A DNA stretch of 62,178 nt, filler included. It is 7 parts of 7 records of this genome, joined end to end, with 100 filler letters (N's around TTAATTAATTAA, not from the genome) between each part and the next. Parts side by side here need not be neighbours in the genome. Positions count along the whole stretch, not along the records: positions 35,998 to 44,909 come from SRR31156797_43183; 6 more parts are not named here. One strand, written 5' to 3'. A program made the translations under genes and the position numbers. The notes below the pieces were generated by a model. The model did no database searches. It saw only the letters and a program-made list of their open reading frames with translations, and was not told where the DNA came from. Shown here piece by piece: positions 4,119 to 56,614 of this stretch (position 1 is its first letter; each line of letters begins with the position of its first letter).

Positions 4119-5104
4119 GTCAAATGCTGCATTATCGACATGGAGAACAGAGTGACCCTTTCCTTTATATTTATTCCGATCCCGGATGGCTCAGGGATTA
4201 CGACCCGGTTCGGGAATTTCCGTTTTGGGTGAATATAGAATCCACGAACCTGTGCAATTTGGATTGCATATTTTGCACCCGCCAGCTTTGCCGGGGATCC
4301 CGGGGATGCATGCCCGACAGTGTGCTGGACAGGATTATTGAGGAAGTTGCCGCCTATCCGGGTGCGGCCATACGAATAGCGGGCTGGGGGGAGCCGCTCA
4401 TGCATCCTGAATTTACCGAACATGTAAAGAGAATAAAACATTCCGGGATTCCCCTAAAGATATATACAAATGGAACGCTTTTGAATGACGAAATGATGGA
4501 AGCGTTCGTGGAAGCCGGGGTGGACGAGATTCAGTTCAGCATGCAGGGTTTGAATCCGACCCAGTATGAATTCAACCGCCGAAAATCAAATTATGACCTG
4601 TTCAGATCCAAGGTGGAAATAGCAGGCGGGGTGCGTGAGAGGACGGGGAGCGGGAAGCCTTTTTTGAGTCTTCTTACTTCAGCTCTTTTAAGCGAATTGA
4701 ACGAGGCGTCGCCAAAAGCCTTTATTAATGAATGGTCGCCCCTGGTGGACAAGGCGGCCGTGGACTTGACCAATCTAAATTTTGTCAGGGAATGCGAGCG
4801 GATTAAGCATTTGCTGGACGACCAGGCTTTGAGCATGGCGCACAGGCCTTGCGTGGACGTATTTCTGGCCATTGAAGTTAATTACGACGGGGCGATTCAA
4901 TTTTGCGGACAGGATGCCTGCCGGACCCCTGAGCATACCATAGGGAACATACAGGACATGACCATTTATGAAGCCTGGCATAGTGAAAAGATGGAAAAGC
5001 ACAGGCAGGCGGTGGGGCGTGAAATCCGGCATGATGAAATGATCATCTGCCGCAACTGTTACCACAACACGAATAAATATGACCTTTTCAAGGAAAAATA
5101 TTAA
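4115..5104 (+). CDS. Radical SAM enzyme with C-terminal SPASM/Twitch domain
   Basis: CNLDCIFC (CxxxCxxC), GWGEPLMHP, YTNGTLL; C-terminal PC...FC...IGNI...CRNC. Start TTG 4115 or ATG 4124. Confidence 0.9.
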   Translation: MSQMLHYRHGEQSDPFLYIYSDPGWLRDYDPVREFPFWVNIESTNLCNLDCIFCTRQLCRGSRGCMPDSVLDRIIEEVAAYPGAAIRIAGWGEPLMHPEFTEHVKRIKHSGIPLKIYTNGTLLNDEMMEAFVEAGVDEIQFSMQGLNPTQYEFNRRKSNYDLFRSKVEIAGGVRERTGSGKPFLSLLTSALLSELNEASPKAFINEWSPLVDKAAVDLTNLNFVRECERIKHLLDDQALSMAHRPCVDVFLAIEVNYDGAIQFCGQDACRTPEHTIGNIQDMTIYEAWHSEKMEKHRQAVGREIRHDEMIICRNCYHNTNKYDLFKEKY

Positions 5105-6041
5105 CGGCCTTTTAAATTTGGCCAAAGCTCATTCGGCCTGGCCTCTACAGCCGGGAAAGGCGGAGGCGCCGGGCGATGAGGCCCGTGAACTGGTCCGTGA
5201 CCTGGAAAGTCATTTTGAGCGCAAAGACGCCTGCGTAATAACTACCGGGGGAGCGGATTATTCCAATGCGGCCGGTTGGGCAAGGCTTTTGGAATGGGAT
5301 ACTGAATTTTTCGGATATCCCTGCGCCAGGATAGAAGGATTGATGGCAGCCGGCGACAATGAAACAAGACGAAGGTCAGCCGGGGAAGTTGTTCAAGGAA
5401 TTCTTGACTGGTGTGTGAAAAAGGAAGTTCGTTTCATAAACGTCAAGGTTCCGGGGCCGGACCCGGCTATTGTCCAGGCCTTGATGGAAAAAGGATTTTA
5501 TTTCGCGGACAGCATCATGGAGCTGGACCGGGGTAATGATGCCCCGATTCCTCAACCGGTCGTTCCCAAGGAATTAACGATACATTCCAATGCCAGGGAT
5601 ATTGAACTTGCGGCCGGCAAATTTTCTTCATTGTTTTATGACGGCAGGTTCCACAACGATCCGCACATTTCAAAAAAAAAGGCGGACAGTTTATGGGAAG
5701 CGGCATTAAGAAGCCAATTGCAAGAGCGAGCAAGACATTTCTTTTTTCTGGGAAATGAAAAGGAAGATATTGGATTGGCAACCTTCCAAACCATTGACGG
5801 CCTGAAAGGGAAAGATAACGGACTTATAGGCAGCCTGTTTTTTTTCGGCATTTTAAGGGAATTCCAGGGCCGGGGCTTGGGCCGGGCGCTGTTGGCCGAA
5901 AGTCTAAGCAAGGTAGAGGCTGATTACAAACGGATCAAGGTTGAGACTTCAACCTACAATTTTCCGGCCCTAAGACTTTATCAGGCCTTTGGGTTTAAAC
6001 CCGGGCGGGTGAAGATGAGCATGCATTTGAGGTTTGATTGA
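5079..6041 (+). CDS. GNAT acetyltransferase, WecD/RffC-like (amino-sugar N-acyltransferase)
   Basis: LEWDTEFFG, GRFHNDP, FQGRGLGRAL acetyl-CoA loop, NFPALRLYQAFGF. Confidence 0.85.
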   Translation: MTFSRKNINGLLNLAKAHSAWPLQPGKAEAPGDEARELVRDLESHFERKDACVITTGGADYSNAAGWARLLEWDTEFFGYPCARIEGLMAAGDNETRRRSAGEVVQGILDWCVKKEVRFINVKVPGPDPAIVQALMEKGFYFADSIMELDRGNDAPIPQPVVPKELTIHSNARDIELAAGKFSSLFYDGRFHNDPHISKKKADSLWEAALRSQLQERARHFFFLGNEKEDIGLATFQTIDGLKGKDNGLIGSLFFFGILREFQGRGLGRALLAESLSKVEADYKRIKVETSTYNFPALRLYQAFGFKPGRVKMSMHLRFD

Positions 6042-6047
6042 CAAGAA

Positions 6048-7076
6048 ATGGATATGAACAGGGATTTAAAAACTCATTTTGAAATCGGCGGAATTCGGGT
6101 CGGGCCCGGCGAACCAGCCTTGGTTGTGGCCGAAATCGGCGGCAATCACGGGGGCGACGTCGACCTGGCTTTAAAGATGATAGACGCGGCATTGGATGCC
6201 GGTTGCATGGCGGTCAAATTCCAGGCGTACAAGACCGGTTCTTTTCTGGCCGGGACCAGCGAATATTTTGATGAACTGGCGGCTGAAGAACTTGGTTTTG
6301 AAGAGATGGCCAGGCTGGCGGATTACTGCGACCGAAAAGGAATGCTATTTCTGGCTTCCGTGTTTGATTTTGAAAGTCTTATTTTGATGGTGCGGTCGGG
6401 AGCGCCGGCCATTAAGATTTCTTCCGGGGATTTAAACAATTTTCCATTGCTTGAAGCTGCGGCCGGAACCTGCAAACCGATTATACTTTCGACAGGGGCG
6501 TCCAATCAGGAAGAAGTTGCGCGCAGCCTGGATTTTTTACATCAATCCGGGGCTGAGGATGTGCTCCTGCTCCAGTGCACATCCATGTATCCCTGCCCGG
6601 ATGACGAGGTCAACCTGTCCGTAATACCATTCTGGCAATCCCAAACAACAGCTCCGATTGGATTTTCAGACCATTCGATCGGCGTGACCATACCCATCGG
6701 GGCCATGGCTCTGGGGGCCTGCCTGGTGGAAAAACATTTCACTATCGACCAGGGGCTTCCGGGCGGAGATAACGAGATATCCTGCCTGCCCCATGAACTG
6801 GCTCAATTGGTCGAAGCTTCAAGTCGCTTATATAAGGCCATGGGCGGTGCGGAAAAAGAGCCAACCAGGGGAGAATTAAACCTTCGAACGGCCATCCGTC
6901 GTTCCGTGGTTGCCATAAAGGATATAAAAGCCGGGGAAAAGTTCGGCCTGCACAACCTGGGTTTTAAAAGGCCCGGGGATTATGCCGAACCGGTTGAGTA
7001 TTATCACCTGGCCGGGAAAGAGGCAAAAAGGGATGTGGCCGAGGGCCGGCCTGTAACCAGGGAGGCGGTGGAGTGA
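6048..7076 (+). CDS. neuB: Nonulosonic acid synthase (NeuB/PseI/LegI family) with SAF domain
   Basis: VAEIGGNHGGD, AVKFQ, KISSGDLNN, ILSTG, QCTSMYP, GFSDHS, EKHFT, RRSVVA...KRPG. Confidence 0.92.
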   Translation: MDMNRDLKTHFEIGGIRVGPGEPALVVAEIGGNHGGDVDLALKMIDAALDAGCMAVKFQAYKTGSFLAGTSEYFDELAAEELGFEEMARLADYCDRKGMLFLASVFDFESLILMVRSGAPAIKISSGDLNNFPLLEAAAGTCKPIILSTGASNQEEVARSLDFLHQSGAEDVLLLQCTSMYPCPDDEVNLSVIPFWQSQTTAPIGFSDHSIGVTIPIGAMALGACLVEKHFTIDQGLPGGDNEISCLPHELAQLVEASSRLYKAMGGAEKEPTRGELNLRTAIRRSVVAIKDIKAGEKFGLHNLGFKRPGDYAEPVEYYHLAGKEAKRDVAEGRPVTREAVE

Positions 7077-7867
7077 CTTTTCAGGTGTGCCTGCCCATAT
7101 CGGACCTGATTACGGCTGATATTGCATCGACCAAGGCATTACTGGATGCCGCCGATGTGCTGGAGCTTAGAAAGCCTGTATTGCCGGCGGATTTGCCTGA
7201 CAAAACCATGATTTATCACTGGAGCCTGGGAACCGTTCAGGAAGGCTTTATTGAAACATTTGAAAAAGAAAACCTGGGTGAGTTTTTATCCGGCCATAAT
7301 ATTGAAATGTTCAGTTTTGACATGGGGCCGGCCTGCAGGAAGAACGATTATGTTCTGCCTATGTCTCGAACCTTGAAACCTGAAGAGATTATGGAAATTT
7401 CTTCCAGGTCCCTGGAACATGTGCGAGGGCGATACCAGGGTCGTTTGGCAGTGGAAAATTACAATTATTATCCGACGGGGCTGTACGAACATATCTGCCG
7501 TCCTGATTTTATGGCGGAGTTTTTGTTCAGATTTGATCTTGGACTGGTGCTTGACCTGGCTCACGCCTGGATAAGCGCGGCAAACCTGGGCCTGGATGTA
7601 AAGGAGTATTTAATGGAATTGCCGCTGGATAAAGTGGTTGAAGTCCATGTAACCAGGCCTCTTTTTTTAGACCGTCTGGCGGTTGACGCCCATTTGGCGC
7701 CGGGAGACGAAGATTTTGAACTGCTTGTTTTTTTGTTGAAGCGCCTGCCGAACGGCAGCAGGCCGACGCCGGTTGAAATAGAGTACTATAAGGATTTGGA
7801 AGGTCTTGAGGCCGGATACAAAAGGCTTGGGAATATATTGGATGAAATCAACAATGAACGGAAATAA
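7073..7867 (+). CDS. DUF692 family multinuclear non-heme iron oxidative enzyme (MNIO)-like protein
   Basis: Ordered motifs IYHWSLG, LAVEN, LVLDLAHAWISAANLG, LPLDKVVEVHV, VDAH, VEIEY match the DUF692 TIM-barrel ligand pattern; GTGA overlap with neuB. Confidence 0.75.
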   Translation: MTFQVCLPISDLITADIASTKALLDAADVLELRKPVLPADLPDKTMIYHWSLGTVQEGFIETFEKENLGEFLSGHNIEMFSFDMGPACRKNDYVLPMSRTLKPEEIMEISSRSLEHVRGRYQGRLAVENYNYYPTGLYEHICRPDFMAEFLFRFDLGLVLDLAHAWISAANLGLDVKEYLMELPLDKVVEVHVTRPLFLDRLAVDAHLAPGDEDFELLVFLLKRLPNGSRPTPVEIEYYKDLEGLEAGYKRLGNILDEINNERK

Positions 7868-8909
7868 AAGCGTAAAAGTAAATCCGCGGCCCGAAAGAAT
7901 GAATGCGGAAGAAAAGCTGAGCAGGAAAAACGCTTTTGACGGCAGCCTGGTCATGGGCGCGGAAAATTTTAACCGGGCCACGGGCCGGGATCGTCATTTT
8001 AATGACGGGCTGGATTCGTTGATAGATGAAAGAACAAACCTGATTAAAAGCCGGTATACCAAGGATCGCTTCTGTCCTGTTTGCGGCTGCCAAAACCCGG
8101 AATTGTTATTTGTCAAAAGGGGATTTCAGCATGTGCGTTGCCCGGAATGCGCGCTTATTTACGTGAATCCCGTTTTGATGGATGAAGCGGTATTGGAGCA
8201 TTACACCAATGAGACATCCTGGGTCCAGGTTTTGGAAAGCGGTCCACAGGTACAACTTGATAGCCTGAAGTATGAATACGGCCTGGATACTGTTGCACCG
8301 TATTTAACCGGAAACAACCTGCTGGACGTGGGAACGGGCACGGGACTTTTCTTAAAGGTCGCCGCCGGGCGGGGCATGGATCCAACAGGATTGGAGTTGA
8401 ACGGACATAACGTATCCCGTTTACGGCAGGATGGCTTTGATATTGTTGATCAACCCCTGGAACAGGCTGATTTTGGCGTTAGAAAATTTGACATGGTTAC
8501 GTTTTGGGAAGTGTTGGAGCATCTGGTCGAGCCAGGATCGCCGCTTGAGCAGGCCGGCCGTGTTTTGAAGCATGACGGTTTGCTGCTTATACTGGTTCCA
8601 AACGCGGATTCCCTGGCCACAAGGATATTGCATGAAAAAAGCGGGACATTCGGCGGGCACTCACATGTTAATCATTTCAATATAAACAACCTGACCCGTC
8701 TGCTGGATAAATGCGGGTTTGAGATGATGGAAGCCGAGACCATTATTACCGAATTGGGAGCGATTAATAATTATCTGAATTTTGAAGATCCGTATTTCGG
8801 CCGGGCGCCTGCTCAACTTGATTTGCTGAGTCCCGGATTCATCCATGAAAACATGCTGGGCAGCAAGTTGTTAATTTTGGCCAGACACAAGAATAAAGGG
8901 AGCAGATGA
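7854..8909 (+). CDS. SAM-dependent methyltransferase with N-terminal zinc ribbon
   Basis: CPVC...CPEC ribbon, LLDVGTGTG, FWEVLEHL, VPN. Start ATG 7854 or 7899. Confidence 0.85.
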   Translation: MNGNKSVKVNPRPERMNAEEKLSRKNAFDGSLVMGAENFNRATGRDRHFNDGLDSLIDERTNLIKSRYTKDRFCPVCGCQNPELLFVKRGFQHVRCPECALIYVNPVLMDEAVLEHYTNETSWVQVLESGPQVQLDSLKYEYGLDTVAPYLTGNNLLDVGTGTGLFLKVAAGRGMDPTGLELNGHNVSRLRQDGFDIVDQPLEQADFGVRKFDMVTFWEVLEHLVEPGSPLEQAGRVLKHDGLLLILVPNADSLATRILHEKSGTFGGHSHVNHFNINNLTRLLDKCGFEMMEAETIITELGAINNYLNFEDPYFGRAPAQLDLLSPGFIHENMLGSKLLILARHKNKGSR

Positions 8910-8910
8910 A

Positions 8911-9594
8911 ATGATCCTGGGTATAATACCGGCCCGCGGCGGCAGCAAGGGCATTCCAAGAAAGAATATTAAATTGATCAACGGGCGTCCGTTGATTGCC
9001 TGGTCCATATTTGCCGCAAGGGAATCAAAACTATTGGACAGGTTTGTGGTGTCCACGGAAGACGACGAGATCGCGGCGGTCGCGGAGCAATACGGGGCCG
9101 AAGTGCTAGAGCGGCCTGCTGCGTTAGCCGGAGATGCATCCAGCAGCCGTGATGTAATTCAACACGCCCTGGAAGCGCTTGACGCCGATGTATCCGTGCT
9201 CCTGCAGCCTACTTCGCCGGTAAGGGACCACGATCTGATCGACCGGGCGATAAAGGCGTTTATTGACGGCGGTTATGATTCAATGGCCACGGGATATATG
9301 AATCCGGTTTATCCGCCTCATGGTGAAGAGCACCGAAGACAGGATATAAGCGAAGTGTTCGTCAATGACGGAAGCATTGTAATATCTACAAGGGATACTA
9401 TAAAGGCCAGGAATCTTTTTGGGAAAAAACGGGGAATAATGGTCACTGACAAGGAACAGAATGTGGACATTGATGATGAATTTGATTTTTGGCTGGCAGA
9501 GCAGGTGCTGATTAAGCGGTTTGGGGATGGGGTTTTGATTTTACCGGAAGAAAGGGATGTGCGTTTGCTGCGTTCCGCGGCCGGGGGAAATTAA
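8911..9594 (+). CDS. neuA: Acylneuraminate cytidylyltransferase (CMP-nonulosonate synthetase)
   Basis: IIPARGGSKGIPRKNI, VVSTED, LLQPTSPVR, VDIDDEFDF. Confidence 0.93.
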   Translation: MILGIIPARGGSKGIPRKNIKLINGRPLIAWSIFAARESKLLDRFVVSTEDDEIAAVAEQYGAEVLERPAALAGDASSSRDVIQHALEALDADVSVLLQPTSPVRDHDLIDRAIKAFIDGGYDSMATGYMNPVYPPHGEEHRRQDISEVFVNDGSIVISTRDTIKARNLFGKKRGIMVTDKEQNVDIDDEFDFWLAEQVLIKRFGDGVLILPEERDVRLLRSAAGGN

Positions 9595-9655
9595 GAGTTT
9601 TCACCACAGAGAGCACAGAGAAGAGAACATAACTATAAACAAGAGTAATTGTAGC

Positions 9656-9683
9656 GGCGCCCACTAAGGGCGCCTTTTCTTTT
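9656..9683 (+). terminator. Rho-independent terminator ending the glycan operon
   Basis: GGCGCCC-ACTAA-GGGCGCC followed by TTTTCTTTT. Confidence 0.8.
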
Positions 9684-9872
9684 GCATGGCCATGGGATGA
9701 TTTCATGTCGCCGTTTCGAGTAGGTTCAGGTCGGCGGATAATGGAAAAATCACACTGATGATGTACAATTCAGAATAATGGCTCCAACTCGGGCGGCCTT
9801 TTGAAAGATTATGTTTTGAAAGGCGGAAAATCGTCCGGGCCTGGTTACAAGGAGAAAAAGACGGAGAAGAAT

Positions 9873-10247
9873 ATGTCATTGTCCATATGCTTGATTGATG
9901 ATTCCAAGGTGGTTCGATCAGTGGTAAGACGCCTGCTGAAAAGCCTGATCAAGGATCGGGATTTGAATTTTTCGGAAGCTAACTGCGGGACCGCCGGATT
10001 GGAATTGCTGCGCAACAATCCATTTGACCTCGCCTTTCTTGATCTGACCATGCCGGATATGACCGGTTATGAAGTATTGGAAGCGTTGCAATCGGAAAAC
10101 GTTCCGGGGAAGATTTTTGTTTTAACCGCGGATATCCAGCCGGAATCGGAAAAGAGAGTTCGAGGGCTCGGCGCAACCGGTTACCTGACCAAGCCCTTGA
10201 AGGATGTTGATTTGAGAGCTGCGTTAAAGGAGAACGGCATCCTATGA
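9873..10247 (+). CDS. Single-domain response regulator (CheY-like)
   Basis: LIDDS, FLDLTMPDMTG, LTAD, YLTKP; start moved to ATG 9873 after GGAG. Confidence 0.9.
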   Translation: MSLSICLIDDSKVVRSVVRRLLKSLIKDRDLNFSEANCGTAGLELLRNNPFDLAFLDLTMPDMTGYEVLEALQSENVPGKIFVLTADIQPESEKRVRGLGATGYLTKPLKDVDLRAALKENGIL

Positions 10248-12448: not shown

Positions 12449-12548
12449 NNNNNNNNNNNNNNNNNNNNNNNNNNNNNNNNNNNNNNNNNNNNTTAATTAA
12501 TTAANNNNNNNNNNNNNNNNNNNNNNNNNNNNNNNNNNNNNNNNNNNN
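12449..12548. other. Artificial contig spacer
   Basis: 44 N + TTAATTAATTAA + 44 N. Confidence 0.99.
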
Positions 12549-18050: not shown

Positions 18051-18150
18051 NNNNNNNNNNNNNNNNNNNNNNNNNNNNNNNNNNNNNNNNNNNNTTAATT
18101 AATTAANNNNNNNNNNNNNNNNNNNNNNNNNNNNNNNNNNNNNNNNNNNN
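18051..18150. other. Artificial contig spacer
   Basis: N-run with TTAATTAATTAA. Confidence 0.99.
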
Positions 18151-25554: not shown

Positions 25555-25654
25555 NNNNNNNNNNNNNNNNNNNNNNNNNNNNNNNNNNNNNNNNNNNNTT
25601 AATTAATTAANNNNNNNNNNNNNNNNNNNNNNNNNNNNNNNNNNNNNNNNNNNN
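25555..25654. other. Artificial contig spacer
   Basis: N-run with TTAATTAATTAA. Confidence 0.99.
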
Positions 25655-35897: not shown

Positions 35898-35997
35898 NNN
35901 NNNNNNNNNNNNNNNNNNNNNNNNNNNNNNNNNNNNNNNNNTTAATTAATTAANNNNNNNNNNNNNNNNNNNNNNNNNNNNNNNNNNNNNNNNNNNN
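35898..35997. other. Artificial contig spacer
   Basis: N-run with TTAATTAATTAA. Confidence 0.99.
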
Positions 35998-36322
35998 ACC
36001 GGTTTTTTTTTGCGTTGTCCTCAAACATGCCCAGGCCGGTCTCTTCCAGTTCCATGGCGGCATATTCTTCAGCGTTGACCAATCCCACATCCCGTATGGA
36101 CTGAATGATATTCTTGCGGATGGAGAGAGGAAGGGCCACGAGATCTCTCTGGGCCGTCTTTGCAGCCTCAACGGCACGGCCCATTTCTTGAAAGACGCCG
36201 TCATTGATATGGGGTTCCGATGATGGGACATCTTCTTCCGCAGCCATTTCCATCCCATTCTCGGACAGCCTTTTTACAACAGTTTCAACTATTTGACTTA
36301 TTGTCTTTTCGTCGAGACCCAT
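35998..36322 (-). CDS. BMC acylating aldehyde dehydrogenase (EutE/PduP-like), N-terminal part with encapsulation peptide (3' truncated)
   Basis: DEKTISQIVETVVKRL helix, linker, GVFQEMGRAVEAAKTAQ, RKNIIQSIR, EETGLG...KKN. Confidence 0.85.
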
Positions 36323-36324
36323 GT

Positions 36325-37275
36325 TTACTCTCTCTCCTTCTGTGGCCAAAGTGAAGTAACGTATGAACCGTTGAATTTATATTCCAATCTCTCATCAACG
36401 TTTTCTTCGGTAAAGAACTCATTGGTGGCTTTTACGCCTTCGTCAAACTTCCTGAGACACTCCATGGCTTTCGCATTATCAAGAAAAGTAACTTCATGAA
36501 CCAGGGCCCCTAAAAAAGCGATAATATGGGCAAAAGGATCTACAAAGGAAACAGACTCGATATCAATAATAATATACTGATCCGCAAGAGAGATGATGGG
36601 AGACCTGGGGTTGTCGCTGATGCAGAGGACCTCCATGTTGCACTTCCTGGCATATTCCACGGCTGCGATGGTTCTTCGGGGATATCTGGGGAAGGCGATG
36701 GCGACCATGAGGCTGGACTTTCCCTTTCCGGCCAGGGAACTCATGGAATCCATCAGTTCCCAGGACAGATTCGTGTCGATAATGACATTTTCCCGTATCC
36801 TCTTAAGAAGATACCCAAAATGGTACGCCGGCGTGGCAGAGGCCCTGTACCCCACCACATAAACTGTTTCGGCCTTGTATATGGTTGTGGCGATCTTTTT
36901 GAATTCCTTTTCAGAGACGGAATTCATGAGATTTTCAAGATTTCGTATGGCATTTTGACAATATCTTTGAACGGTCGTCCCTTTATCCTGTTGACGGCTT
37001 GCCTTTGTGAGCCTCTCCACGCTGGTCAACTCCGCATGAAACAGCCCTTTCATGTACTGGAGGAATTCCGCATATCCGGAAAATCCGAGATCGACCGCAA
37101 ACCGTATGATCGTCGGTTCGCTGACCTGGCATTCCTGGGCAATCTCTTTGCCCGTCATGAGAAATATCTTTTTGTAGTCCTTCATAATCAGCTCCGCCAC
37201 GCGTTTCTTTTTGGGAGACAACGTGGGATAAACACTGATGATTTTGTCAAAAAGATCTTTTCGAGCCGAATTCAT
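36325..37275 (-). CDS. RpiR/MurR-family regulator (HTH + SIS)
   Basis: LSPKKKRVAE, VSEPTIIRFAVDLGFSGY, VVGYRAS, IAFPRYP, ISDNPRSPI. Confidence 0.9.
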   Translation of the reverse strand: MNSARKDLFDKIISVYPTLSPKKKRVAELIMKDYKKIFLMTGKEIAQECQVSEPTIIRFAVDLGFSGYAEFLQYMKGLFHAELTSVERLTKASRQQDKGTTVQRYCQNAIRNLENLMNSVSEKEFKKIATTIYKAETVYVVGYRASATPAYHFGYLLKRIRENVIIDTNLSWELMDSMSSLAGKGKSSLMVAIAFPRYPRRTIAAVEYARKCNMEVLCISDNPRSPIISLADQYIIIDIESVSFVDPFAHIIAFLGALVHEVTFLDNAKAMECLRKFDEGVKATNEFFTEENVDERLEYKFNGSYVTSLWPQKERE

Positions 37276-37306
37276 GGGGTCCGCCTTTCCTGGTTCAACT
37301 GATGAA

Positions 37307-37924
37307 TCAGAGATCCCTTCCGTCAAGGGCCGCCAGAGATGCCTCGGCAGCTTCCCTTGCGGCTTTCACATCGGAAGATGTGCCGGAAAGATAGAGCCTG
37401 CCGCTGGCGCCGAATACGGTCACATGATTGAGGGTCATATTGGCCGCTTTCTCCGCTTCATTTGCCGCCAGTCCGGCATAACCGGCGGGCACGACTTCCA
37501 TGGTGTATAGCGTATCGTCCGATGAACACATGCTTGCATTGCGGAACCGGTTGACGATCTGAGACATGAAAGGGTCGGTCCGTTCGATGGTTTCAGAGGC
37601 TAATATCTTGGGTTTCATCCGATCCGAAGCCTTCATCTTCAGGTAATCCATCAGTACCTCGCCCGCTTCCAGGACATCGGCCGGCGAATCGGCATGAACC
37701 TCGAGCATACCGAAAGTCCTTTCCACAACCATGGCCCCCGGTCTCACATTGGCCTTTTTCATCACTGTATCCATGAGGGTATTAATCTCGATACCCGGGG
37801 CGATTTCGAGGAATAGCGCTGATTGTCCGGCAACCGGATAATACCCCATTGCGGTAGAGCCGATAAAGCCGACAAACTGTTCCTGTAAACGATCGATAAA
37901 AGAGAACGCTCTAAGGTCAATCAT
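37307..37924 (-). CDS. BMC shell trimer, BMC-T(dp) (CcmP/CsoS1D-like)
   Basis: LRAFSFIDRLQ, EIAPG, VERTFGMLEVH, PAGYAGLAANEAEK, GASGRL. Confidence 0.9.
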   Translation of the reverse strand: MIDLRAFSFIDRLQEQFVGFIGSTAMGYYPVAGQSALFLEIAPGIEINTLMDTVMKKANVRPGAMVVERTFGMLEVHADSPADVLEAGEVLMDYLKMKASDRMKPKILASETIERTDPFMSQIVNRFRNASMCSSDDTLYTMEVVPAGYAGLAANEAEKAANMTLNHVTVFGASGRLYLSGTSSDVKAAREAAEASLAALDGRDL

Positions 37925-37936
37925 GGGGGATTCCTT

Positions 37937-39124
37937 TCAGATGCTTTCCAGCCATCTCCTTTTGTATGGACAAACAGCGGTTTCCACTGTGCATGCGCAA
38001 TCCTTTTCAGCCCCGCGGCCGAACCGGCCGTAACAGAAATCGTTGAGAGGTATGGTGGTTTCACAGTCCATGATTACTTCAGAGATGAGACGGCCGATGA
38101 CCGGCGCAAGTCCGAAACCGTGCCCGCTGAATCCGGTGGCAAAAACGAAGCCCGGAACCTCCGGGGTGAGACCGATCACCGGGATTCCGTCGGACATCAT
38201 GGCGATAAGACCCGACCACATTCGGATCACATGGAGATCCTTCAGTGCGGGGAAAAAATCAAGAACGCTCCTGGATATGGCCGGCCCGATATTATTGAAG
38301 AGCGGTTTTCCATCTCGATAGAGGTATTCCTCGGTACCGATGAATCCGCCCCAGAAAAAGGATCCATGTACCGTTTGACGGCCGTAAAAGAGGCCCTTGG
38401 CGTGTCCGACCATCTGTTGGAACAGGGGGGGGTACGGTTCGGTGATGAGGGCTTCGGAGAAGACGGGTTTCATGGGTAGATCCAACCCCACCATGTTGGC
38501 AATTTTCCGGCCGGCGATGCCTGCCGCATTTACCGCCAGGTCGGTTTCAATCACCTGCTTGTCGGTGGTGACGGCAAAAACCCTCCCTTTCTGCAATTTT
38601 ATATCGATAACCGTCTCATGGGTACAGAACCTTGCACCAAGGGCCCTGGCCTTCCTGTAAAATGCGTAGGTCACTAAAAAAGGATTGGCATGTCCGTCTG
38701 TTGGACAGTAGCTGGCGCCGACAACCCTTTCGCCGATATAGGGGTTTATTTCCAGGATCTGACCACGGTCGAGCATCTCAAGGTCAAGGCCGATCCCTTT
38801 CTGGTCATCGACCGCCTTGCCCATGAGTGTCACTTCTTCTTCATTGGTGCAAAGCCGAAGGTTCCCCTCCCGGACATACTCCACATCCATTCCCAATTCT
38901 TCGCTGAGCCGGCCGTACATCCGGATGCTCTCCATGGCGAGAGGCATCTCTTTCAGGTTCCTTGCCGACTGGCGTACCCCGCCCCCATTGCTGCCCGATG
39001 CCTCACCTCCAATATCCGACTTTTCAATGACGACCGGTTTGAGACCCTCTCTGGCAAGGTTATAGGCGATGGCACATCCCATGACGCCACCGCCGATAAT
39101 GACAACATCTGCTGTGTTTGGCAT
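37937..39124 (-). CDS. FAD-dependent amine/D-amino-acid oxidoreductase (DAO family; sarcosine oxidase beta/OoxB/proline dehydrogenase-like)
   Basis: VVIIGGGVMG, ASGSNGGGVR, DGHANP, VNAAG, RMWSG, DGIPVIG, ATGFSGHGFGLAP. Confidence 0.92.
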   Translation of the reverse strand: MPNTADVVIIGGGVMGCAIAYNLAREGLKPVVIEKSDIGGEASGSNGGGVRQSARNLKEMPLAMESIRMYGRLSEELGMDVEYVREGNLRLCTNEEEVTLMGKAVDDQKGIGLDLEMLDRGQILEINPYIGERVVGASYCPTDGHANPFLVTYAFYRKARALGARFCTHETVIDIKLQKGRVFAVTTDKQVIETDLAVNAAGIAGRKIANMVGLDLPMKPVFSEALITEPYPPLFQQMVGHAKGLFYGRQTVHGSFFWGGFIGTEEYLYRDGKPLFNNIGPAISRSVLDFFPALKDLHVIRMWSGLIAMMSDGIPVIGLTPEVPGFVFATGFSGHGFGLAPVIGRLISEVIMDCETTIPLNDFCYGRFGRGAEKDCACTVETAVCPYKRRWLESI

Positions 39125-39142
39125 ACTATCTTCCTTATATTA

Positions 39143-39805
39143 TCAGCCTGTGGCAAGTACCGAAAGGCGAACCGGCCTGACCGGCGCCCTGGCGGTGGTC
39201 GGATCCACATGGGCGGGACTGACGCCGAGTTCGCCCGCAAGAATCCGGGTCACCAATCTCTGACATGTCTGGCCCTGACACAGGCCCATACCGGCCCTTG
39301 TAATCCGCTTAACGCCGTTCAGGGTTGCGATTCCGTTTCCGACAGCCTCTTTGATTTCCCCTTTTGTGATCTCCTCACATCGACAGATGATCACATCATC
39401 GTCGGAAATCTCTTCGTCGACCGATTCACCGGGCCGGGTCGGTTTTAAACCCTTGATTTCCTTGAAGCGCGCAATAACCCTCTCGGTTATTTCCTCAATC
39501 TCTTCTTCGGATATCTCCATGCCGGACCGGGCCCGGTCGGATCTTTCCCGGACAGGTCCCGGATCATCAAGATGGTTCTGCTCCACATGCGGGTCAGGGC
39601 CTTCCATTTCAGGCTCCTTCTCTCCCGGCAATCCCCTCCCGCGCCCATCCGAGCGCCCGGCAACATAAGTTACCTTGATCCGGTTATCTTTGATCAGGTC
39701 CTGGGCGGCAGAAGTGATCCGTGCACCTTCAGGGATCTCAATCTCTCTTCCGCCCTCCTGTAAAATCGCTTCTATATCACTGCCGAATACAAAAACAGCT
39801 GTCAT
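39143..39805 (-). CDS. BFD-like [2Fe-2S] subunit (OoxA/HcnB C-terminal type) with N-terminal extension and predicted encapsulation peptide
   Basis: ICRCEEIT, KRITRAGMGLCQGQTC, RAPVRPV; internal EEEIEEITERVIARFKEI helix; RBS GGGAG before ATG 39805. Confidence 0.85.
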   Translation of the reverse strand: MTAVFVFGSDIEAILQEGGREIEIPEGARITSAAQDLIKDNRIKVTYVAGRSDGRGRGLPGEKEPEMEGPDPHVEQNHLDDPGPVRERSDRARSGMEISEEEIEEITERVIARFKEIKGLKPTRPGESVDEEISDDDVIICRCEEITKGEIKEAVGNGIATLNGVKRITRAGMGLCQGQTCQRLVTRILAGELGVSPAHVDPTTARAPVRPVRLSVLATG

Positions 39806-39901
39806 CTGATGCTCCCGCACTCAAACCCGCGTCCCACTTCGTGACGGAGGTCATTTGCCATCTCCATAAGCCCGCAACACCGCATGCCCGGTTTCCTCCC
39901 G

Positions 39902-40519
39902 CTATTGTTCTCTTCCTTTAAGATCTTTTAAGGTTTCCACCACTATTTTCGCTGCAGTCTGGACTTCCGATTCCGGGCCGGCCAAATAGATACGGCCCGC
40001 TGCGCCGAAAAATCTGATATCCACCAGCCGGACATTGCAATGCTTCTCCGCCTCGTTTGCCGCAATGGAGGCGTAAGCAGCCGGGGTAACCTCCAGGAGA
40101 TAGACGTCATCGCCGCCAAGGATCAGCATCCCCTTGCTGTTGCGGTTGATGATCACGGCCTGATACGGGTCTACCTTATTGACAATGGATGTAGACAGTA
40201 TCTTTGGCGACAGCCGGTCCTCTTCCCGCGCCCCGATCTCATCAAGCACCATCTTACCGGCATGCAATACCTCTTCCTGATCAAAGGAGTGGATCTCCAG
40301 CATACCGTATCGTCTTTCCACGATCATTTCGCCCGGTTTGGCGTTGGTGCTCTTGAGTGCGATATCGGTCAACCGGTTAATCTCAATTCCCGGCACCACC
40401 TCCACAAAGAGTGAGGCCATCCCCTCCACCGGGAGAAACCCCCTGCAGGAGCTGGCGAACAGAGAGGCAAACTGCGGTTGCAACCTATCGAGATGGCAAA
40501 AAACTCTTAAATCGGCCAT
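39902..40519 (-). CDS. BMC shell trimer, BMC-T(dp)
   Basis: LRVFCHLDRLQPQ, EVVPG, VERRYGMLEIH, PAAYASIAANEAEK, GAAGR. Confidence 0.9.
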   Translation of the reverse strand: MADLRVFCHLDRLQPQFASLFASSCRGFLPVEGMASLFVEVVPGIEINRLTDIALKSTNAKPGEMIVERRYGMLEIHSFDQEEVLHAGKMVLDEIGAREEDRLSPKILSTSIVNKVDPYQAVIINRNSKGMLILGGDDVYLLEVTPAAYASIAANEAEKHCNVRLVDIRFFGAAGRIYLAGPESEVQTAAKIVVETLKDLKGREQ

Positions 40520-40606
40520 TGGTTTATCTCCTTAAAAATCGGGATTTTTCCCTGTAGAATCCCTGTGAACACACATATTGCGCACGTCATTAGCAGGCCT
40601 GAAACC

Positions 40607-41419
40607 TCAGGCATCCAGGATGATTATGGAATTCTCTTTTGCCAGGTCTTTAGCCAGAGGCGTCACTTTTCCTCCCCGTGCGAGTCTTACGGATTTTTCT
40701 CTGTTTTCAACCGCCTTATTAATATCCTTGGCCGCGACAAGGCTTAAAGCGGGCTTCTTATGGGTTTGCAATTCCGATCCGGCCATTCCACCTTCCCCTT
40801 TACCGGGAGATACTATTTTTTGGAAGGTTGCGCTCAGGTTCTCAGTCCTGGAAAAGACCATTCCGAAGGTTTCCAGCTTTTTCAATATCCGTTCCATTTC
40901 TCCGCGTATTGCTGCATTTGTAAGTGTTTTCAAGAGCATGAAGCCGTCACGTGCAGCCAGTACCTTTTTACCCCTTAAAAGCGCGGAGAGCACAATGCCT
41001 GATCCCTGGTCATCGCAGGCAAGGCGAGCCACTTTGGAGGCCACCTGCATACAGAAAGTGGGCAGGACAAGGATATCCGCTTTTTCCAGGACTTTTTCCA
41101 GTCCGTCCGGTTTTACGGAGTCAAGGATGCACCGGGATCCTGTCTTCATTTTCACATCATCCCCGCACCCGCATATGGAGGCCCGGGCTGCATCTGTTTG
41201 AAAAACTCCTGTTTTTCCGGCAATCGATTCAATGAGACGCACCTGCCTGAGGGCCTCGTCCACCTTGAGCACCCCCGGATGGAAGACAAACAGAGTCATG
41301 GGACCGGTTACAGACCGGTTCGGTCTGGCCGGTCGTGTTGATACCGCCGCATCTGACTGCATCTCTCTGATCACTTCTCTGACGATGCTTTTAATATTTT
41401 CCGAATTCAAATTCACCAT
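40607..41419 (-). CDS. BMC-associated flavoprotein-like protein (PduM-like) with N-terminal encapsulation peptide
   Basis: SENIKSIVREVIREM, ADILVLPT..SKVA..ACDD, ALLRGKKV, C-terminal VTPLAKDLAKE. Confidence 0.75.
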   Translation of the reverse strand: MVNLNSENIKSIVREVIREMQSDAAVSTRPARPNRSVTGPMTLFVFHPGVLKVDEALRQVRLIESIAGKTGVFQTDAARASICGCGDDVKMKTGSRCILDSVKPDGLEKVLEKADILVLPTFCMQVASKVARLACDDQGSGIVLSALLRGKKVLAARDGFMLLKTLTNAAIRGEMERILKKLETFGMVFSRTENLSATFQKIVSPGKGEGGMAGSELQTHKKPALSLVAAKDINKAVENREKSVRLARGGKVTPLAKDLAKENSIIILDA

Positions 41420-41452
41420 TTTGATTCCAGACTTAATGGGCAGAAGCCATTT

Positions 41453-42292
41453 TCACAAGCCCCGGGATCCCTTCCCGTTCCCTTGAAGACAGGAAAGGGC
41501 GATTCCAAAGGGAGTAATTACCCCGGGGGCATGGGGACGAAACGCCTTCAACCCCAGGTTCTTGCCGACCACCTCCGTAAATCCCTCCAGTTCACAGCTT
41601 CCCCCTACCATGCAGATCCTATCGATGTTTTTGTAGGGCTTCAAAAAAGCGCCGGTGATTGAAGAAACCTTGTCAATAACCGGTCTTATGATAGGGAGGA
41701 TCTCCTTGCTTTCCCTGCTGACCTTGATCTCTTCAGCCTCTTCATAACTGACTTTCAGTGCCCCGGCCAGCACCAGGGTCAGATGCACGCCGCCCGTGGG
41801 CTCGTCATTGCTGTAAACAACTCTGCCCCCCTCCATTACGGCGACGCCGGTGGTGCCTCCCCCCACATCCACAATGGCGCCATCCATCATGTTTAAAACC
41901 AGGTTGGCGGCCGTCGGTTCGTCAAGCACATTTTTGACCTCCAAACCGACCGCTTCAAGGATATATCTTGTTGTGTTGATGTTCCCGGACTCGGTCTGCG
42001 GCGGATATGATGTGGCCCCTTTTTCCAAGGGGATCGGACATTTTCCTCTAATCTCCTCCAACAGCTCCCGCACGACATCCACGGCTCCCATGTAATTTAC
42101 GATCATGCCGCTTTTGACCACTTCGGCCCGCTTCATGGCGGCGGCCCTTGGTCGCCCTTTTTCATCAACAACAATGATAAAAATCTTGTAGGTCCCCACG
42201 TCAACGCCCACATAAAGATCTTTTGCCCCGGAAAAGTCCCACTGTTCAGGACGATTCAGGATTCTATTGATCTTTTCCACCGCATCTTTCAT
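41453..42292 (-). CDS. eutJ: EutJ (actin/Hsp70-like BMC protein)
   Basis: VGVDVGT, ATSYPP, DEPTAA, VDVGGGTTG, DEPTGGVH, TPFGIA. Confidence 0.92.
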   Translation of the reverse strand: MKDAVEKINRILNRPEQWDFSGAKDLYVGVDVGTYKIFIIVVDEKGRPRAAAMKRAEVVKSGMIVNYMGAVDVVRELLEEIRGKCPIPLEKGATSYPPQTESGNINTTRYILEAVGLEVKNVLDEPTAANLVLNMMDGAIVDVGGGTTGVAVMEGGRVVYSNDEPTGGVHLTLVLAGALKVSYEEAEEIKVSRESKEILPIIRPVIDKVSSITGAFLKPYKNIDRICMVGGSCELEGFTEVVGKNLGLKAFRPHAPGVITPFGIALSCLQGNGKGSRGL

Positions 42293-42840
42293 GATAATGA
42301 ACCCATAAGCTCCCTGCTGAGTGAGGGGATGACCACATGGCTTAAGATCCCCCCATCTTCTTGAACGGAGGCAACGCCGGCATCAACAGCGGCCTTGACC
42401 GAACCCACATCTCCCGTAAGGGTGACGAAAGATTTCCCTGCGAGGCCCGTGGCGCACCGGATCTCAATAAGGTCGATATCGGCTGCTTTTGCCGCGCCAT
42501 CGGCGGCATTGATGCAGGATGCAACGGAATAGGTTTCAATGATACCCATGGCATCGATCTGGCGGATATGGGTTGTGCAATGGAGTGCGGGAAACACGGC
42601 AGGTGAAATGTTGGGGATGACAAACCTGTCCACCAGAAACTCACCGGCGGTTTCCAACCCCGCATCCACCGAATTCTGAACCGAACCCACATCTCCGGCT
42701 ATCATGACAAGATATCGACCCGGACAGGAAGGACGCGCCATAACGATCTCAACATTTGCCGTTTTAATCATATGATCAGCGCATTCAATCCCCTTTGCGA
42801 CGCTGTTCAACTCAACCATGCCGATTGCACTGTATTTCAT
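42289..42840 (-). CDS. pduT: BMC shell trimer PduT-like (Fe-S-binding Cys retained)
   Basis: AIGMVELNSVAKG, PSCPGRY, GDVGSV twice, GLAGK; two tandem BMC domains. Confidence 0.88.
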   Translation of the reverse strand: MKYSAIGMVELNSVAKGIECADHMIKTANVEIVMARPSCPGRYLVMIAGDVGSVQNSVDAGLETAGEFLVDRFVIPNISPAVFPALHCTTHIRQIDAMGIIETYSVASCINAADGAAKAADIDLIEIRCATGLAGKSFVTLTGDVGSVKAAVDAGVASVQEDGGILSHVVIPSLSRELMGSLS

Positions 42841-42856
42841 GCCACCCACCTTTTCA

Positions 42857-44206
42857 TTAGCGTCTGATCACCACGGAATCACCCACCGAGGACACCTTGC
42901 CGGATATGCTTGCGTGTACCCTGGCGCCCAGTGCCTTTTCCGGTATTTCACCGATGACATCTCCCTTTTCTATGGGGTCCCCCTCCTTAACAACGGCCAC
43001 GGCAGGGGCGCCCAAATGCTGCTTCAACGGTATGGTGACCTCTTTGACCGGAATTTCACCGGTAAAATATTCCGGATGCCCATCATACCGGCCGATCTGA
43101 AGACGTTCCATGAGCCTCTTTGTGGGTATCTTCCGCACACCCCTGAACAGGGACGGACTGTACCCGGTTTTCCGGGCAGGTCTCTTCACCCCGCCTGCCA
43201 GCAATTCCCGTTTGATCCGTGCATTGACTTCCCTTGGAGAAATCATCATGGGGCATGCATATTTTTCACAAATACCACACTCGGAACAGATGAGCGCATC
43301 CTTCAAAGATTCATCCGCCAGGCCCGTCTGCCAACTTAACCGGCGCATAATCTTGTGCGGTTCGAGCTGATGCCCCAACAGGTTCCTCGGGCACAGATCC
43401 GTGCAGCGGGAACAGTGGCAACAGATGGTACGTGCAATCTTTTGTATGCGCTCAGGGTCCTCTGTCTTGCCTGTAATCACATTGTGGTCGCCCGGCAGCA
43501 CAATGACCCCGCTGGTGGTTTTGGTGACGGGTGTGGACATATGGGAGATCACCTGCCCCATCATCGGTCCACCCGTGACAACCTTGCAGTCGACAGTGGT
43601 TCCGCCCGCCAGGTCCAGAATTTTTCCCACTGAAATGCCGATGGGAACTTTCATGATCATGGGCCGTTCCACTTCACCGGTGACCGTAAGATATCTCTCC
43701 GTCACAGGGATCCCCTCATCAACGGCCCGCATGATATTGAGCAGGGTTTCGACATTGCTCACCACACAGCCCACCTGCAGCGGTATGCCCCCCTCGGGCA
43801 CCACACGGTTCATAACTTCATATACAAGGACCTGTTCATCTCCCGCAGGATAAAAGTCCTTAAGCTGGAATATCTCAATGTCCTCAAATCCGCCGTTCCC
43901 CGCGGTCTTTTTCAAGGCGGCCATGGCCTGATGGTGCTTCCCCTTCAGGCATATATCCCCCCTGACCGCGCCGGTGCATTTCATGGCCAGATTGAGACCT
44001 CGAAGTATCGGTTCGGGGTGTTGCCCCATGATATAAGGATCACTATCCAGAAGCGGTTCACAGGATGCCCCGTTTCCCAGAACCCTGTTCACATGGGCGT
44101 CGAGCTTTACGTGGGTGGGGAACCCGGCGCCACCTGCGCCCACCACTCCCGCGGCCCGGACACTGTTTATGATATCTTCTCTCGTTTCCAATGCTCTTCT
44201 GCCCAA
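42857..44206 (-). CDS. pduS: PduS/RnfC-like flavin, SLBB and 4Fe-4S oxidoreductase
   Basis: GVVGAGGAGFPTHVK, CEPLL, YPAGDE, GGPMMG, CCHCSRCTDLCP, CSECGICEKYACP, QHLGAPA, HASISG. TTG start 44206 or 44191. Confidence 0.9.
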   Translation of the reverse strand: MGRRALETREDIINSVRAAGVVGAGGAGFPTHVKLDAHVNRVLGNGASCEPLLDSDPYIMGQHPEPILRGLNLAMKCTGAVRGDICLKGKHHQAMAALKKTAGNGGFEDIEIFQLKDFYPAGDEQVLVYEVMNRVVPEGGIPLQVGCVVSNVETLLNIMRAVDEGIPVTERYLTVTGEVERPMIMKVPIGISVGKILDLAGGTTVDCKVVTGGPMMGQVISHMSTPVTKTTSGVIVLPGDHNVITGKTEDPERIQKIARTICCHCSRCTDLCPRNLLGHQLEPHKIMRRLSWQTGLADESLKDALICSECGICEKYACPMMISPREVNARIKRELLAGGVKRPARKTGYSPSLFRGVRKIPTKRLMERLQIGRYDGHPEYFTGEIPVKEVTIPLKQHLGAPAVAVVKEGDPIEKGDVIGEIPEKALGARVHASISGKVSSVGDSVVIRR

Positions 44207-44209
44207 ATC

Positions 44210-44479
44210 CTAAGCCATCTCCATGCTGTCGACGATACCTACCACCACGGCATCCACCGGAATCGGTCTATCCCCATTAAACGCCTGCATGGCCGGCGCA
44301 CCCTGAGTGACAATAACCATCTCATCAACCCCGGCCCCTATCTCGTCAACGGCAATCAGGACATTGCCGGCAGGCGTCATATCCTTCCCTAAGGGCTCTA
44401 CGAACAGGAGTCTCAGAGCGTGAATCTCCTCTTTTTTCTTGGTGGACCAGACATTTCCGACAACTTTGCCTATCAGCAT
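44210..44479 (-). CDS. eutN: BMC pentamer (EutN/CcmL)
   Basis: GKVVGNVWSTKK, AVDEIGAG, VDAVVVGIVD. Confidence 0.92.
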   Translation of the reverse strand: MLIGKVVGNVWSTKKKEEIHALRLLFVEPLGKDMTPAGNVLIAVDEIGAGVDEMVIVTQGAPAMQAFNGDRPIPVDAVVVGIVDSMEMA

Positions 44480-44557
44480 AATATTAACCCCCGGTATTGT
44501 CCGGCCCGGACAAATACCGCCTGTTTCCATAGGAATAAGTAATCCAGGGCGTCTTAA

Positions 44558-44860
44558 TCACAACCCTTCGCCACCGCGAACGGCATCCAGGCTGGCCTGA
44601 ACCGCGGCAATATCGCCGAAAACACCGATCATGGTCAGATGTTGAGGGCATGTGCCCTTAAGGTCGTAGACGTGGACATCCGCCGCCTTTTCCGCAATGT
44701 CCGCCGCGTAGATCATATCCACCACTTTGCCCTGGATCAGTCCCACCGCACTGAAGTCGATTTCCCGGATCGTTTTCTTGGCCCCGGGGCCCATCCTTGT
44801 TGTCAGGATATCGATAACGCCCGGCCCGGGTTGTGTTATGAACTGAATATTTAATGCCAT
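44558..44860 (-). CDS. Circularly permuted BMC hexamer, GrpU-like (GxCPQ motif)
   Basis: AVGLIQG, AADIAEKAA, GTCPQH, FGDIAAV. Confidence 0.8.
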   Translation of the reverse strand: MALNIQFITQPGPGVIDILTTRMGPGAKKTIREIDFSAVGLIQGKVVDMIYAADIAEKAADVHVYDLKGTCPQHLTMIGVFGDIAAVQASLDAVRGGEGL

Positions 44861-44909: not shown

Positions 44910-45009
44910 NNNNNNNNNNNNNNNNNNNNNNNNNNNNNNNNNNNNNNNNNNNNTTAATTAATTAANNNNNNNNNNNNNNNNNNNNNNNNNNNNNNNNNNN
45001 NNNNNNNNN
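44910..45009. other. Artificial contig spacer
   Basis: N-run with TTAATTAATTAA. Confidence 0.99.
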
Positions 45010-56514: not shown

Positions 56515-56614
56515 NNNNNNNNNNNNNNNNNNNNNNNNNNNNNNNNNNNNNNNNNNNNTTAATTAATTAANNNNNNNNNNNNNNNNNNNNNNNNNNNNNN
56601 NNNNNNNNNNNNNN
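56515..56614. other. Artificial contig spacer
   Basis: N-run with TTAATTAATTAA. Confidence 0.99.

Follow-up and report, generated by a model that had tools for sequence, protein, structure and literature searches.

In well-studied metabolosomes, the aldehyde comes from B12 enzymes, glycyl radical enzymes or aldolases. Glycyl-radical-enzyme bacterial microcompartments (BMCs) that include GrpU, PduS and PduT are described as 'redox-replete' shells. A third relevant system, the N-methylglutamate pathway of aerobic methylotrophs, consists of GmaS, MgsABC and MgdABCD. Here we describe a BMC locus that resembles parts of each of these systems. The locus was found on one 8.9-kb contig (35998-44909) of a 62-kb stretch of joined contigs, which we refer to as the window. 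We conclude that the locus is real and conserved and that it encodes a metabolosome whose signature enzyme belongs to an undescribed class and is probably a complex built, in some form, around a DAO-family flavoenzyme.

The candidate signature enzyme on the contig is a 395-residue DAO-family FAD dehydrogenase, beta subunit (37937..39124, minus strand; PF01266, E 8e-75). Next to it is a gene for a 225-residue protein, BFD/A3, that combines a BFD-type [2Fe-2S] domain with a SoxA-A3 domain (39143..39820, minus strand; PF04324, PF17806). A first-pass annotation of this DNA had placed these two genes between two BMC-T(dp) genes, and the gene order on the contig bears this out. The CcmP-like T(dp)-1 (39902..40519, minus strand) scores 239 bits to NF053796 (E 4e-71) and the CcmP-like T(dp)-2 (37307..37924, minus strand), which is 43% identical to it, scores 222 bits (E 6e-66), both under the 340-bit cut-off. 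The contig has shell genes of both folds, as expected of a metabolosome: five of PF00936 type (BMC-H/T) and one of PF03319 (BMC-P).

A search of species-representative genomes with DAO identified 44 related loci, 43 with a DAO at 71-79% identity and one at 67%. The carriers are nearly all metagenome-assembled genomes (MAGs) labelled Desulfobacterales, Desulfatiglandales, Desulfarculia or Syntrophobacteraceae, which marks the contig as of Desulfobacterota type. A complete related locus, L001, begins with a glutamine synthetase (GS)-like ligase, a class-II amidotransferase, a GXGXG protein, a GltB-type FMN protein, Fer2_4, Pyr_redox_2 and a 2x[4Fe-4S] protein. These genes are followed by a BMC-H gene and the contig's twelve genes, with an extra BMC-H between T(dp)-1 and BFD. 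Downstream lie a full-length aldehyde dehydrogenase (AldDH), an outer-membrane channel, RidA, a NifX-like protein, TRAP DctPQM, a receiver protein, Amidohydro_3, a class-I amidotransferase/C26-like protein and glutamate dehydrogenase. Synteny tables show the same core gene set throughout all loci, accompanied by RidA and usually by a TRAP transporter, and in the mapped loci the DAO gene is flanked by two shell genes. Judged from these alignments, the contig is the middle of a conserved Desulfobacterota metabolosome locus.

To avoid ascertainment bias, we ran a reverse search anchored on T(dp)-1, which shares 73-87% identity with the relatives that it retrieved. This search returned 49 loci, 7 of them too short to score. 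BFD and DAO are present in 39 of the 42 loci with at least 3 kb downstream, and the genomes of the three exceptions (L052, L055 and L073) keep a DAO with T(dp) and RpiR elsewhere (L036, L020 and L026). A search for DAO and BFD genes beside shell genes in other genomes had been proposed initially as a check, and it found the pair conserved. The glutamate synthase-type gene (GluSyn), Pyr_redox_2 and Fer2_4 are likewise found together in 28/28 loci with at least 8.5 kb upstream. The genomes G001, G002, G004 and G005 contain a single BMC locus each.

Structural relatives place the flavoenzyme closer to an archaeal enzyme than to the D-amino-acid dehydrogenases named initially. The best match of DAO among solved structures is a full-length one to 1Y56_B (E 5e-53), with weaker scores for glycine oxidases (3.5e-35), dimethylglycine dehydrogenase (1e-30) and SoxB (2e-25). 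The 1Y56 structure is the dye-linked L-proline dehydrogenase (PDH1) of Pyrococcus horikoshii, with chain B as the beta subunit. The alpha subunit of this enzyme type also has homologues in the locus, but it is split. Fer2_4 aligns to SoxA residues 12-100, Pyr_redox_2 to SoxA 172-486 and 2GAG_A 130-458, and BFD/A3 to 1Y56_A 407-491 and SoxA 488-563. BFD/A3 and Fer2_4 each have four invariant cysteines. By alignment, Fer2_4, Pyr_redox_2 and BFD/A3 are colinear pieces of one SoxA/PDH1-alpha-type subunit, and the predicted flavoenzyme is made of five gene products (DAO, Fer2_4, Pyr_redox_2, BFD/A3 and a 2x[4Fe-4S] ferredoxin-like protein) rather than two. No annotated gene of the locus contains a GCV_T (folate-binding) domain, the alpha pieces ending at about SoxA residue 596, and the annotated locus has no SoxD or SoxG gene.

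Several proteins of the locus contain additions that we found in shell-linked versions. Conserved amphipathic helices beside variable linkers occur at the N-terminus of AldDH (34 sequences) and of an accessory protein (36), and internally in BFD/A3 (42). BFD/A3 is 197-251 residues long in 42 shell-linked loci, versus 112 residues in an Acetobacterium MAG and 115 residues in the Desulfovibrionales locus L107, both of which are shell-less. In the structure model of a relative's BFD/A3, a small domain (residues 10-53, pLDDT 95-97) precedes a disordered region (57-86), a helix (92-112) and then the BFD/A3 fold. The accessory protein ends in a domain homologous to this small one (28% identity over 39 residues, pairwise E 1e-6). 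This alpha/beta domain of about 45 residues, modelled with confidence, is thus common to the N-terminus of BFD/A3 (39656-39820), the C-terminus of the accessory protein (40610-40756) and the N-terminus of the NifX-like protein (L001:15677-16330). It is a candidate shell-docking module.

DAO itself has a Cys-rich C-terminus of about 30 residues that ends C-P-x-K-R-x-W-L (37937-38030; L001:11100-11206). A strict pattern recovers it in 41 of 45 shell-linked sequences (two others are variants, one is truncated at a contig end and one was left out), and it is absent from both shell-less homologues compared. The tail may bind a metal or an Fe-S cluster, or it may contact the shell. On the sequences compared, the apparent targeting additions are limited to shell-linked versions.

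No B12 enzyme, aldolase, glycyl radical enzyme or activase is encoded in the complete L001 locus or its 14-16 kb flanks. The missing flanks of the contig had been named as the place where such an enzyme might lie, and the corresponding regions of relatives contain none. The earlier suggestion that DAO and BFD form the aldehyde-making enzyme thus gains from their conservation, from the targeting extension on BFD and from the lack of a rival enzyme in the flanks, while its two-subunit make-up does not stand. PduL (PF06130) is absent from all four related genomes searched, and the genes annotated in L001 and its flanks include no alcohol dehydrogenase. With an acylating AldDH and neither of these, the system fits an 'incomplete core' metabolosome.

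What the flavoenzyme might oxidise is suggested by the genes upstream of the shell genes in relatives. In 4/4 genomes the locus is immediately preceded by a GS-like gene, and each of these genomes encodes, at other sites, a canonical GS that scores higher as well as additional GltB homologues. Relative to the canonical GS of the same genomes, which retains GFDGSS, GYF and PGYEAP, the locus-linked protein has GFDGSS replaced (with a 12-residue insertion), GYF deleted and the Glu of PGYEAP lost (S-F-A-P), and it retains the metal, ATP and glutamate motifs. The lost residues presumably form the ammonium site of GS. Their loss makes a role in ammonia assimilation unlikely and points to a gamma-glutamyl-amine ligase. 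GS paralogues can be mono- or polyamine glutamylases according to the passages of PMC13740247 on GS-like amine ligases, which give no ammonium-site residue rule.

The amidotransferase, GXGXG and FMN proteins that accompany the GS-like ligase form a trio resembling N-methylglutamate synthase, in which the amidotransferase retains Cys1 (MCGIAG). These genes are also linked to the flavoenzyme outside of microcompartments. In L107 (DAO 50% identical), ten head-to-tail genes (1507-9910) encode the GS-like protein, amidotransferase, GXGXG protein, FMN subunit, Fer2_4, Pyr_redox_2, Fer4, BFD/A3, DAO and RidA, with zero shell genes among them and no aldehyde dehydrogenase in the 12-kb contig. From their gene order, the Desulfobacterales loci look like an L107-type operon into which shell, PduS/T, EutJ and AldDH genes were inserted. 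In L036, a Desulfobacula locus that has been rearranged, AldDH and the GS-like gene are neighbours. We also considered a housekeeping GS-GOGAT (GS-glutamate synthase) pair that lies beside the locus by chance, which is ruled out by the extra paralogues in 4/4 genomes, the lost motifs and the L107 operon.

Coupling of the flavoenzyme to a GS-like ligase and an N-methylglutamate-synthase-like trio makes an N-alkylglutamate a more likely oxidised molecule than a free amine. We thus propose a scheme, for which we see about an even chance, in which an amine receives a glutamyl tag and becomes an N-alkylglutamate, whose oxidation in the shell yields glutamate and a toxic aldehyde that is then converted to acyl-CoA. 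Every reaction, the identity of the amine and the presence of proteins inside the shell are predicted in this scheme from the observed gene content, conservation, domain homologies and shell-specific additions. The GS-like ligase would join the amine to glutamate with ATP, and the three-subunit synthase-like enzyme would convert the amide into an N-alkylglutamate, which would enter the shell, perhaps via the two gated T(dp) proteins. There the flavoenzyme would oxidise the N-alkyl carbon, with regiochemistry as in the conversion of proline to pyrroline-5-carboxylate, and RidA would speed hydrolysis of the imine to glutamate and free aldehyde. Since no folate domain is available to capture the product, the aldehyde would be released free and confined by the shell, where the shell-targeted AldDH would turn it into acyl-CoA. 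Electrons of the flavoenzyme and of NADH would exit via the BFD, Fer2_4 and Fer4 clusters and the PduS-, PduT- and GrpU-like Fe-S proteins.

In a one-carbon version of this scheme, sulfate reducers and their relatives would oxidise methylamine anaerobically by an iron-sulfur N-methylglutamate pathway. A dehydrogenase without a folate domain would release free formaldehyde, which the shell would confine and AldDH would convert to formyl-CoA. We consider this version distinctly unlikely, though if true it would represent the first formaldehyde-handling microcompartment and supply genes that account for the turnover of methylamine without methanogenesis in anoxic sediments.

A number of observations weigh against glutamyl-tagging or against the flavoenzyme as signature enzyme, and several of them lend themselves to other explanations. 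Of the ligase, trio and flavoenzyme genes, the window carries DAO and BFD/A3 only; the ligase, the trio and the other three flavoenzyme pieces are drawn from relatives at 53-84% identity. The GS-like protein scores 225 bits to glutamate-methylamine ligase (9QUR) versus 248 bits to archaeal GS. The FMN subunit of the trio retains the GOGAT-type Fe-S motif C-x5-C-x4-C, which we would not expect of MgsC. The locus includes an RpiR/SIS regulator, and regulators of this type usually sense sugar phosphates. The scheme offers no route for recycling CoA and NAD+ in the absence of PduL.

Other points of this kind concern the closest relatives of the flavoenzyme. Its nearest solved relative is a proline dehydrogenase (E 5e-53 versus 3.5e-35 for glycine oxidase), as would suit the import of a cyclic or secondary amino acid (proline-, pipecolate-, sarcosine- or opine-like) and its direct oxidation in the shell. 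The resulting imine or semialdehyde (for example, glutamate semialdehyde) would pass to AldDH, and the GS- and GltB-like genes would handle released nitrogen or glutamate. We identified 18 Firmicutes loci (DAO 44-47% identical) that contain the flavoenzyme pieces and often RidA without GS or trio, and in 14 of them an ornithine-cyclodeaminase (OCD)/mu-crystallin-family gene adjoins. These loci (L109-L126, for example L118:6360-11549) include ones from cultured Clostridium, Blautia and Desulfosporosinus, and in them Pyr_redox_2 is fused to Fer4. The Firmicutes set looks like a candidate anaerobic proline/cyclic-imino-acid dehydrogenase; a cyclic amino acid is thus a possible substrate, and the wider family may act on proline-like compounds.

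The transporter is a further point of concern. The TRAP binding protein retains an arginine (K-[IFVM]-R-[VMA]) that we take to be a carboxylate clamp, which fits poorly with a simple alkylamine and favours an imported amino acid. Solved relatives proved too distant for naming the ligand, the best being the lactate-binding 2ZZV (E 3e-22) and the others weaker. Glutamate dehydrogenase, encoded downstream in one genome, would also fit direct oxidation. However, a GS-like protein without canonical GS motifs is unlikely to assimilate ammonia. The genes for the ligase, trio, flavoenzyme and RidA are tightly packed in a single operon in L107, and rearrangements elsewhere have not separated them. Furthermore, the annotated L001 locus and flanks contain no OCD gene, and on general chemical grounds glutamate semialdehyde and an acylating AldDH would give an unstable gamma-glutamyl-CoA. 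We thus judge direct oxidation unlikely.

A class-I amidotransferase/peptidase-C26-like gene, present in at least 15 loci and lying between AldDH and RidA in L004, L012 and L013, has no role in a pure N-methylglutamate scheme. It would have one if a diamine or omega-amino compound were gamma-glutamylated and DAO, like PuuB, oxidised the free terminal amine in the shell, with AldDH acting on the gamma-glutamyl aminoaldehyde and the C26-like hydrolase removing the tag. A DAO-family enzyme and an AldDH belong to the Puu enzyme set, and against gamma-glutamylputrescine synthetase the GS-like protein reaches 258 bits, under the cut-off. Nonetheless, this route leaves the amidotransferase/GXGXG/FMN trio and the split SoxA-like alpha pieces without a role. 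The AldDH of the locus is of the CoA-acylating EutE type (524 bits in the full-length L001 protein; only E 8e-10 to the PuuC model), and DAO is nearer to secondary-amine oxidisers (proline dehydrogenase, dimethylglycine dehydrogenase and SoxB). We regard a Puu-like route as very unlikely.

Finally, pyruvate formate-lyase-like homologues occur in 4/4 genomes, as they might if the flavoenzyme served a redox or accessory function and the actual signature enzyme, such as a glycyl radical homologue, were encoded elsewhere. GrpU- and PduS/PduT-type proteins are typical of glycyl radical BMCs. PMC8217296 cites Ferlez 2019 for such proteins and also gives a precedent for satellite-encoded core enzymes in the ACI AldDh. 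However, every pyruvate formate-lyase-like match either lies on a different contig or is separated by at least 0.9 Mb from the sole BMC locus, and no activase or glycyl radical enzyme accompanies the locus or its flanks. In addition, BFD/A3 has a shell-specific targeting extension and the DAO gene sits between two shell genes in mapped loci. These observations make an accessory role highly improbable, and we retain the DAO complex as the probable signature enzyme.

The single co-oriented operon proposed initially, with GrpU-like, EutN, PduS, PduT, EutJ, two T(dp), RpiR and AldDH genes, was confirmed gene by gene, with all BMC-locus genes on the minus strand. A GrpU-like BMC-H (44558..44860, minus strand; PF00936, E 3e-9) matches PDB 4OLO (E 3e-23) and the GrpU structure 4OLP. 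Its pore motif G-T-C-P-Q (G-x-C-P-Q) aligns with both structures, and the pore cysteine, a likely Fe-S site, is present in 33/33 orthologues. Next are a BMC-P vertex protein (EutN/CcmL; 44210..44530, minus strand; PF03319, E 1e-26) and a PduS/RnfC-like FMN and 4Fe-4S electron-transfer protein (42857..44206, minus strand; Complex1_51K, SLBB, Fer4_17 and RnfC_N; TIGR01945, 256 bits). A PduT-like tandem BMC-T(s) follows (42289..42849, minus strand), with two BMC domains (E 7e-49) and a match to TIGR02526 (E 5e-40) under the cut-off; its pore cysteine (x-C-[PA]-G-[KR]) is present in 35/35 orthologues. The adjoining gene encodes an EutJ-type actin/Hsp70-fold ATPase (41453..42292, minus strand; NF011660, 308 bits against a cut-off of 182).

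The contig has no canonical BMC-H gene. Relatives carry this gene either upstream, adjoining the GrpU-like gene, or after T(dp)-1 and ahead of BFD, and the contig breaks off exactly at the site of the upstream copy in many related loci.

The accessory protein (40607..41419, minus strand) is a tether-type protein of 270 residues that matches TIGR02536 (E 8e-13) and has no Pfam match. Its structure model (pLDDT 82) comprises a helix (residues 6-22) and two domains (41-203 and 225-269), and the predicted fold is of the UbiX/PPC-decarboxylase/EpiD 'Flavoprotein' type (Foldseek E 1.7e-6). The first-pass annotation had called this protein a PduM-like flavoprotein, of which the flavoprotein part agrees with the model. 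The PduM identity, which has no Pfam support and was only a weak lead, was dropped, as Atlas returned flavoprotein clusters with PduM at rank 30.

At the other end of the contig, an RpiR-family regulator (HTH_6 + SIS; 36325..37326, minus strand; PF01418, PF01380) probably starts near 37275, where the orthologue alignment begins. In essentially all loci the operon includes an RpiR/SIS regulator, flanked by T(dp)-2 and AldDH (L001:11840-12787), with no sugar-phosphate enzyme there. The contig end truncates the acylating AldDH gene (35998..36322, minus strand), whose translation covers the first ~108 residues. The N-terminal encapsulation-type helix suggested at first is present in this stub, which is the only part of the enzyme on the contig. 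The stub is 57.5% identical over 106 residues to residues 1-106 of the full-length 482-residue AldDH of L001, which scores 524 bits to NF011927 (EutE-like) against a cut-off of 403. We classify the enzyme as an encapsulation-tagged acylating AldDH from this full-length orthologue and the conserved N-terminal helix; the contig copy consists of the N-terminal 108 residues and does not show the catalytic residues.

The window joins seven contigs with six linkers of the form N44-TTAATTAATTAA-N44 (12449-12548, 18051-18150, 25555-25654, 35898-35997, 44910-45009 and 56515-56614). The BMC locus lies on the contig at 35998-44909, and both of its junctions were read in the sequence, which confirms that it is truncated at both ends. 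The missing locus genes were not found on the other six contigs. G+C content is about 0.52 (range about 0.49-0.55) in the BMC contig versus 0.41-0.46 in neighbouring contigs, which encode, for example, a 1186-residue protein with a type-IX-secretion sorting domain. This gap, together with the Desulfobacterota-type relatives of the BMC contig, suggests that the bin containing the seven contigs may mix organisms. On a neighbouring contig (33747-35836), an MbnP-family protein adjoins a di-haem cytochrome c peroxidase (MauG/MbnH-like), a pairing known from methanobactin-type operons. An Rfam scan of 8 loci returned tRNAs only and no riboswitch. Among sequencing runs, the contig was seen only in the probable source sample, and no RNA run is listed as containing it.

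If the proposed scheme is true, a flavin/iron-sulfur amine dehydrogenase fed by ATP-driven glutamyl-tagging would constitute a new signature chemistry and explain what a BMC type does that has so far only been catalogued. The scheme would also provide strict anaerobes with a route to degrade small amines without oxygen and represent a natural case of electron export via Fe-S shell proteins. A profile search identified 210 stretches of species-representative genomes that encode DAO relatives, shell-less Firmicutes forms included. The locus is common in uncultured Desulfobacterales-type MAGs and may thus matter for nitrogen and carbon turnover in anoxic sediments. Our full-text searches found no paper that ties microcompartments to the N-methylglutamate pathway, to gamma-glutamyl amine routes or to FAD-dependent oxidoreductase signature enzymes, nor one on microcompartments with methylamine or formaldehyde handling or on Desulfobacterales loci of this kind.

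Comparison with described systems reveals partial matches to several of them. PMC8217296 lists MIC2-7 as loci that have BMC-H/T/P shell genes and a pfam00171 AldDh with an encapsulation peptide, with no obvious signature enzyme, and places CcmP-like T(dp) proteins in some MIC, HO and SPU loci. The locus shares with MIC2-7 its shell genes, its encapsulation-tagged AldDH and the lack of a known signature enzyme. The main text of that paper names no flavoenzyme, ligase or trio, and MIC4-7 are not described singly there or in the preprint. The locus type has probably already been catalogued as a function-unknown MIC metabolosome.

Relative to glycyl radical BMCs (GRM), the locus has a similar GrpU-like C-P-Q pore motif, PduT-like pore cysteine and PduS-like FMN/Fe-S protein, but L001 and its 14-16 kb flanks lack the enzyme and its activase. 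The Escherichia coli Puu pathway (PuuA-D) similarly brings together a GS-like ligase, a DAO-family oxidase, an AldDH and a C26-type hydrolase, whereas the locus described here has a CoA-acylating AldDH, an Mgs-like trio, a multi-piece Fe-S dehydrogenase and a shell. PDH1 (1Y56) and heterotetrameric sarcosine oxidase (2GAG, 1X31) provide the closest parallels to the flavoenzyme, with DAO corresponding to 1Y56_B and Pyr_redox_2 and BFD/A3 matching successive parts of 1Y56_A/SoxA. PDH1, in contrast, has a single Pyr_redox-type alpha subunit, whereas here alpha takes three genes and is joined by a ferredoxin-like gene. A Cys-rich tail on DAO and a 115-residue targeting extension on BFD/A3 are further differences.

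A further parallel is to the N-methylglutamate pathway. Both encode together a GS-like ATP ligase, a class-II amidotransferase/GXGXG/FMN trio and a sarcosine-oxidase-type dehydrogenase, and the relatives of the contig contain both a distinct GS-like ligase and a three-subunit synthase. The four-subunit SoxBDAG-like dehydrogenase with a folate-binding alpha subunit is replaced by an enzyme with alpha split in three, no folate domain, no SoxD or SoxG and extra Fe-S proteins. The GOGAT-type Cys motif, anaerobic hosts, shell, acylating AldDH and RidA are further differences. On the homologies described above, the gene set of this locus is that of the N-methylglutamate pathway, in a putative iron-sulfur, folate-free form.

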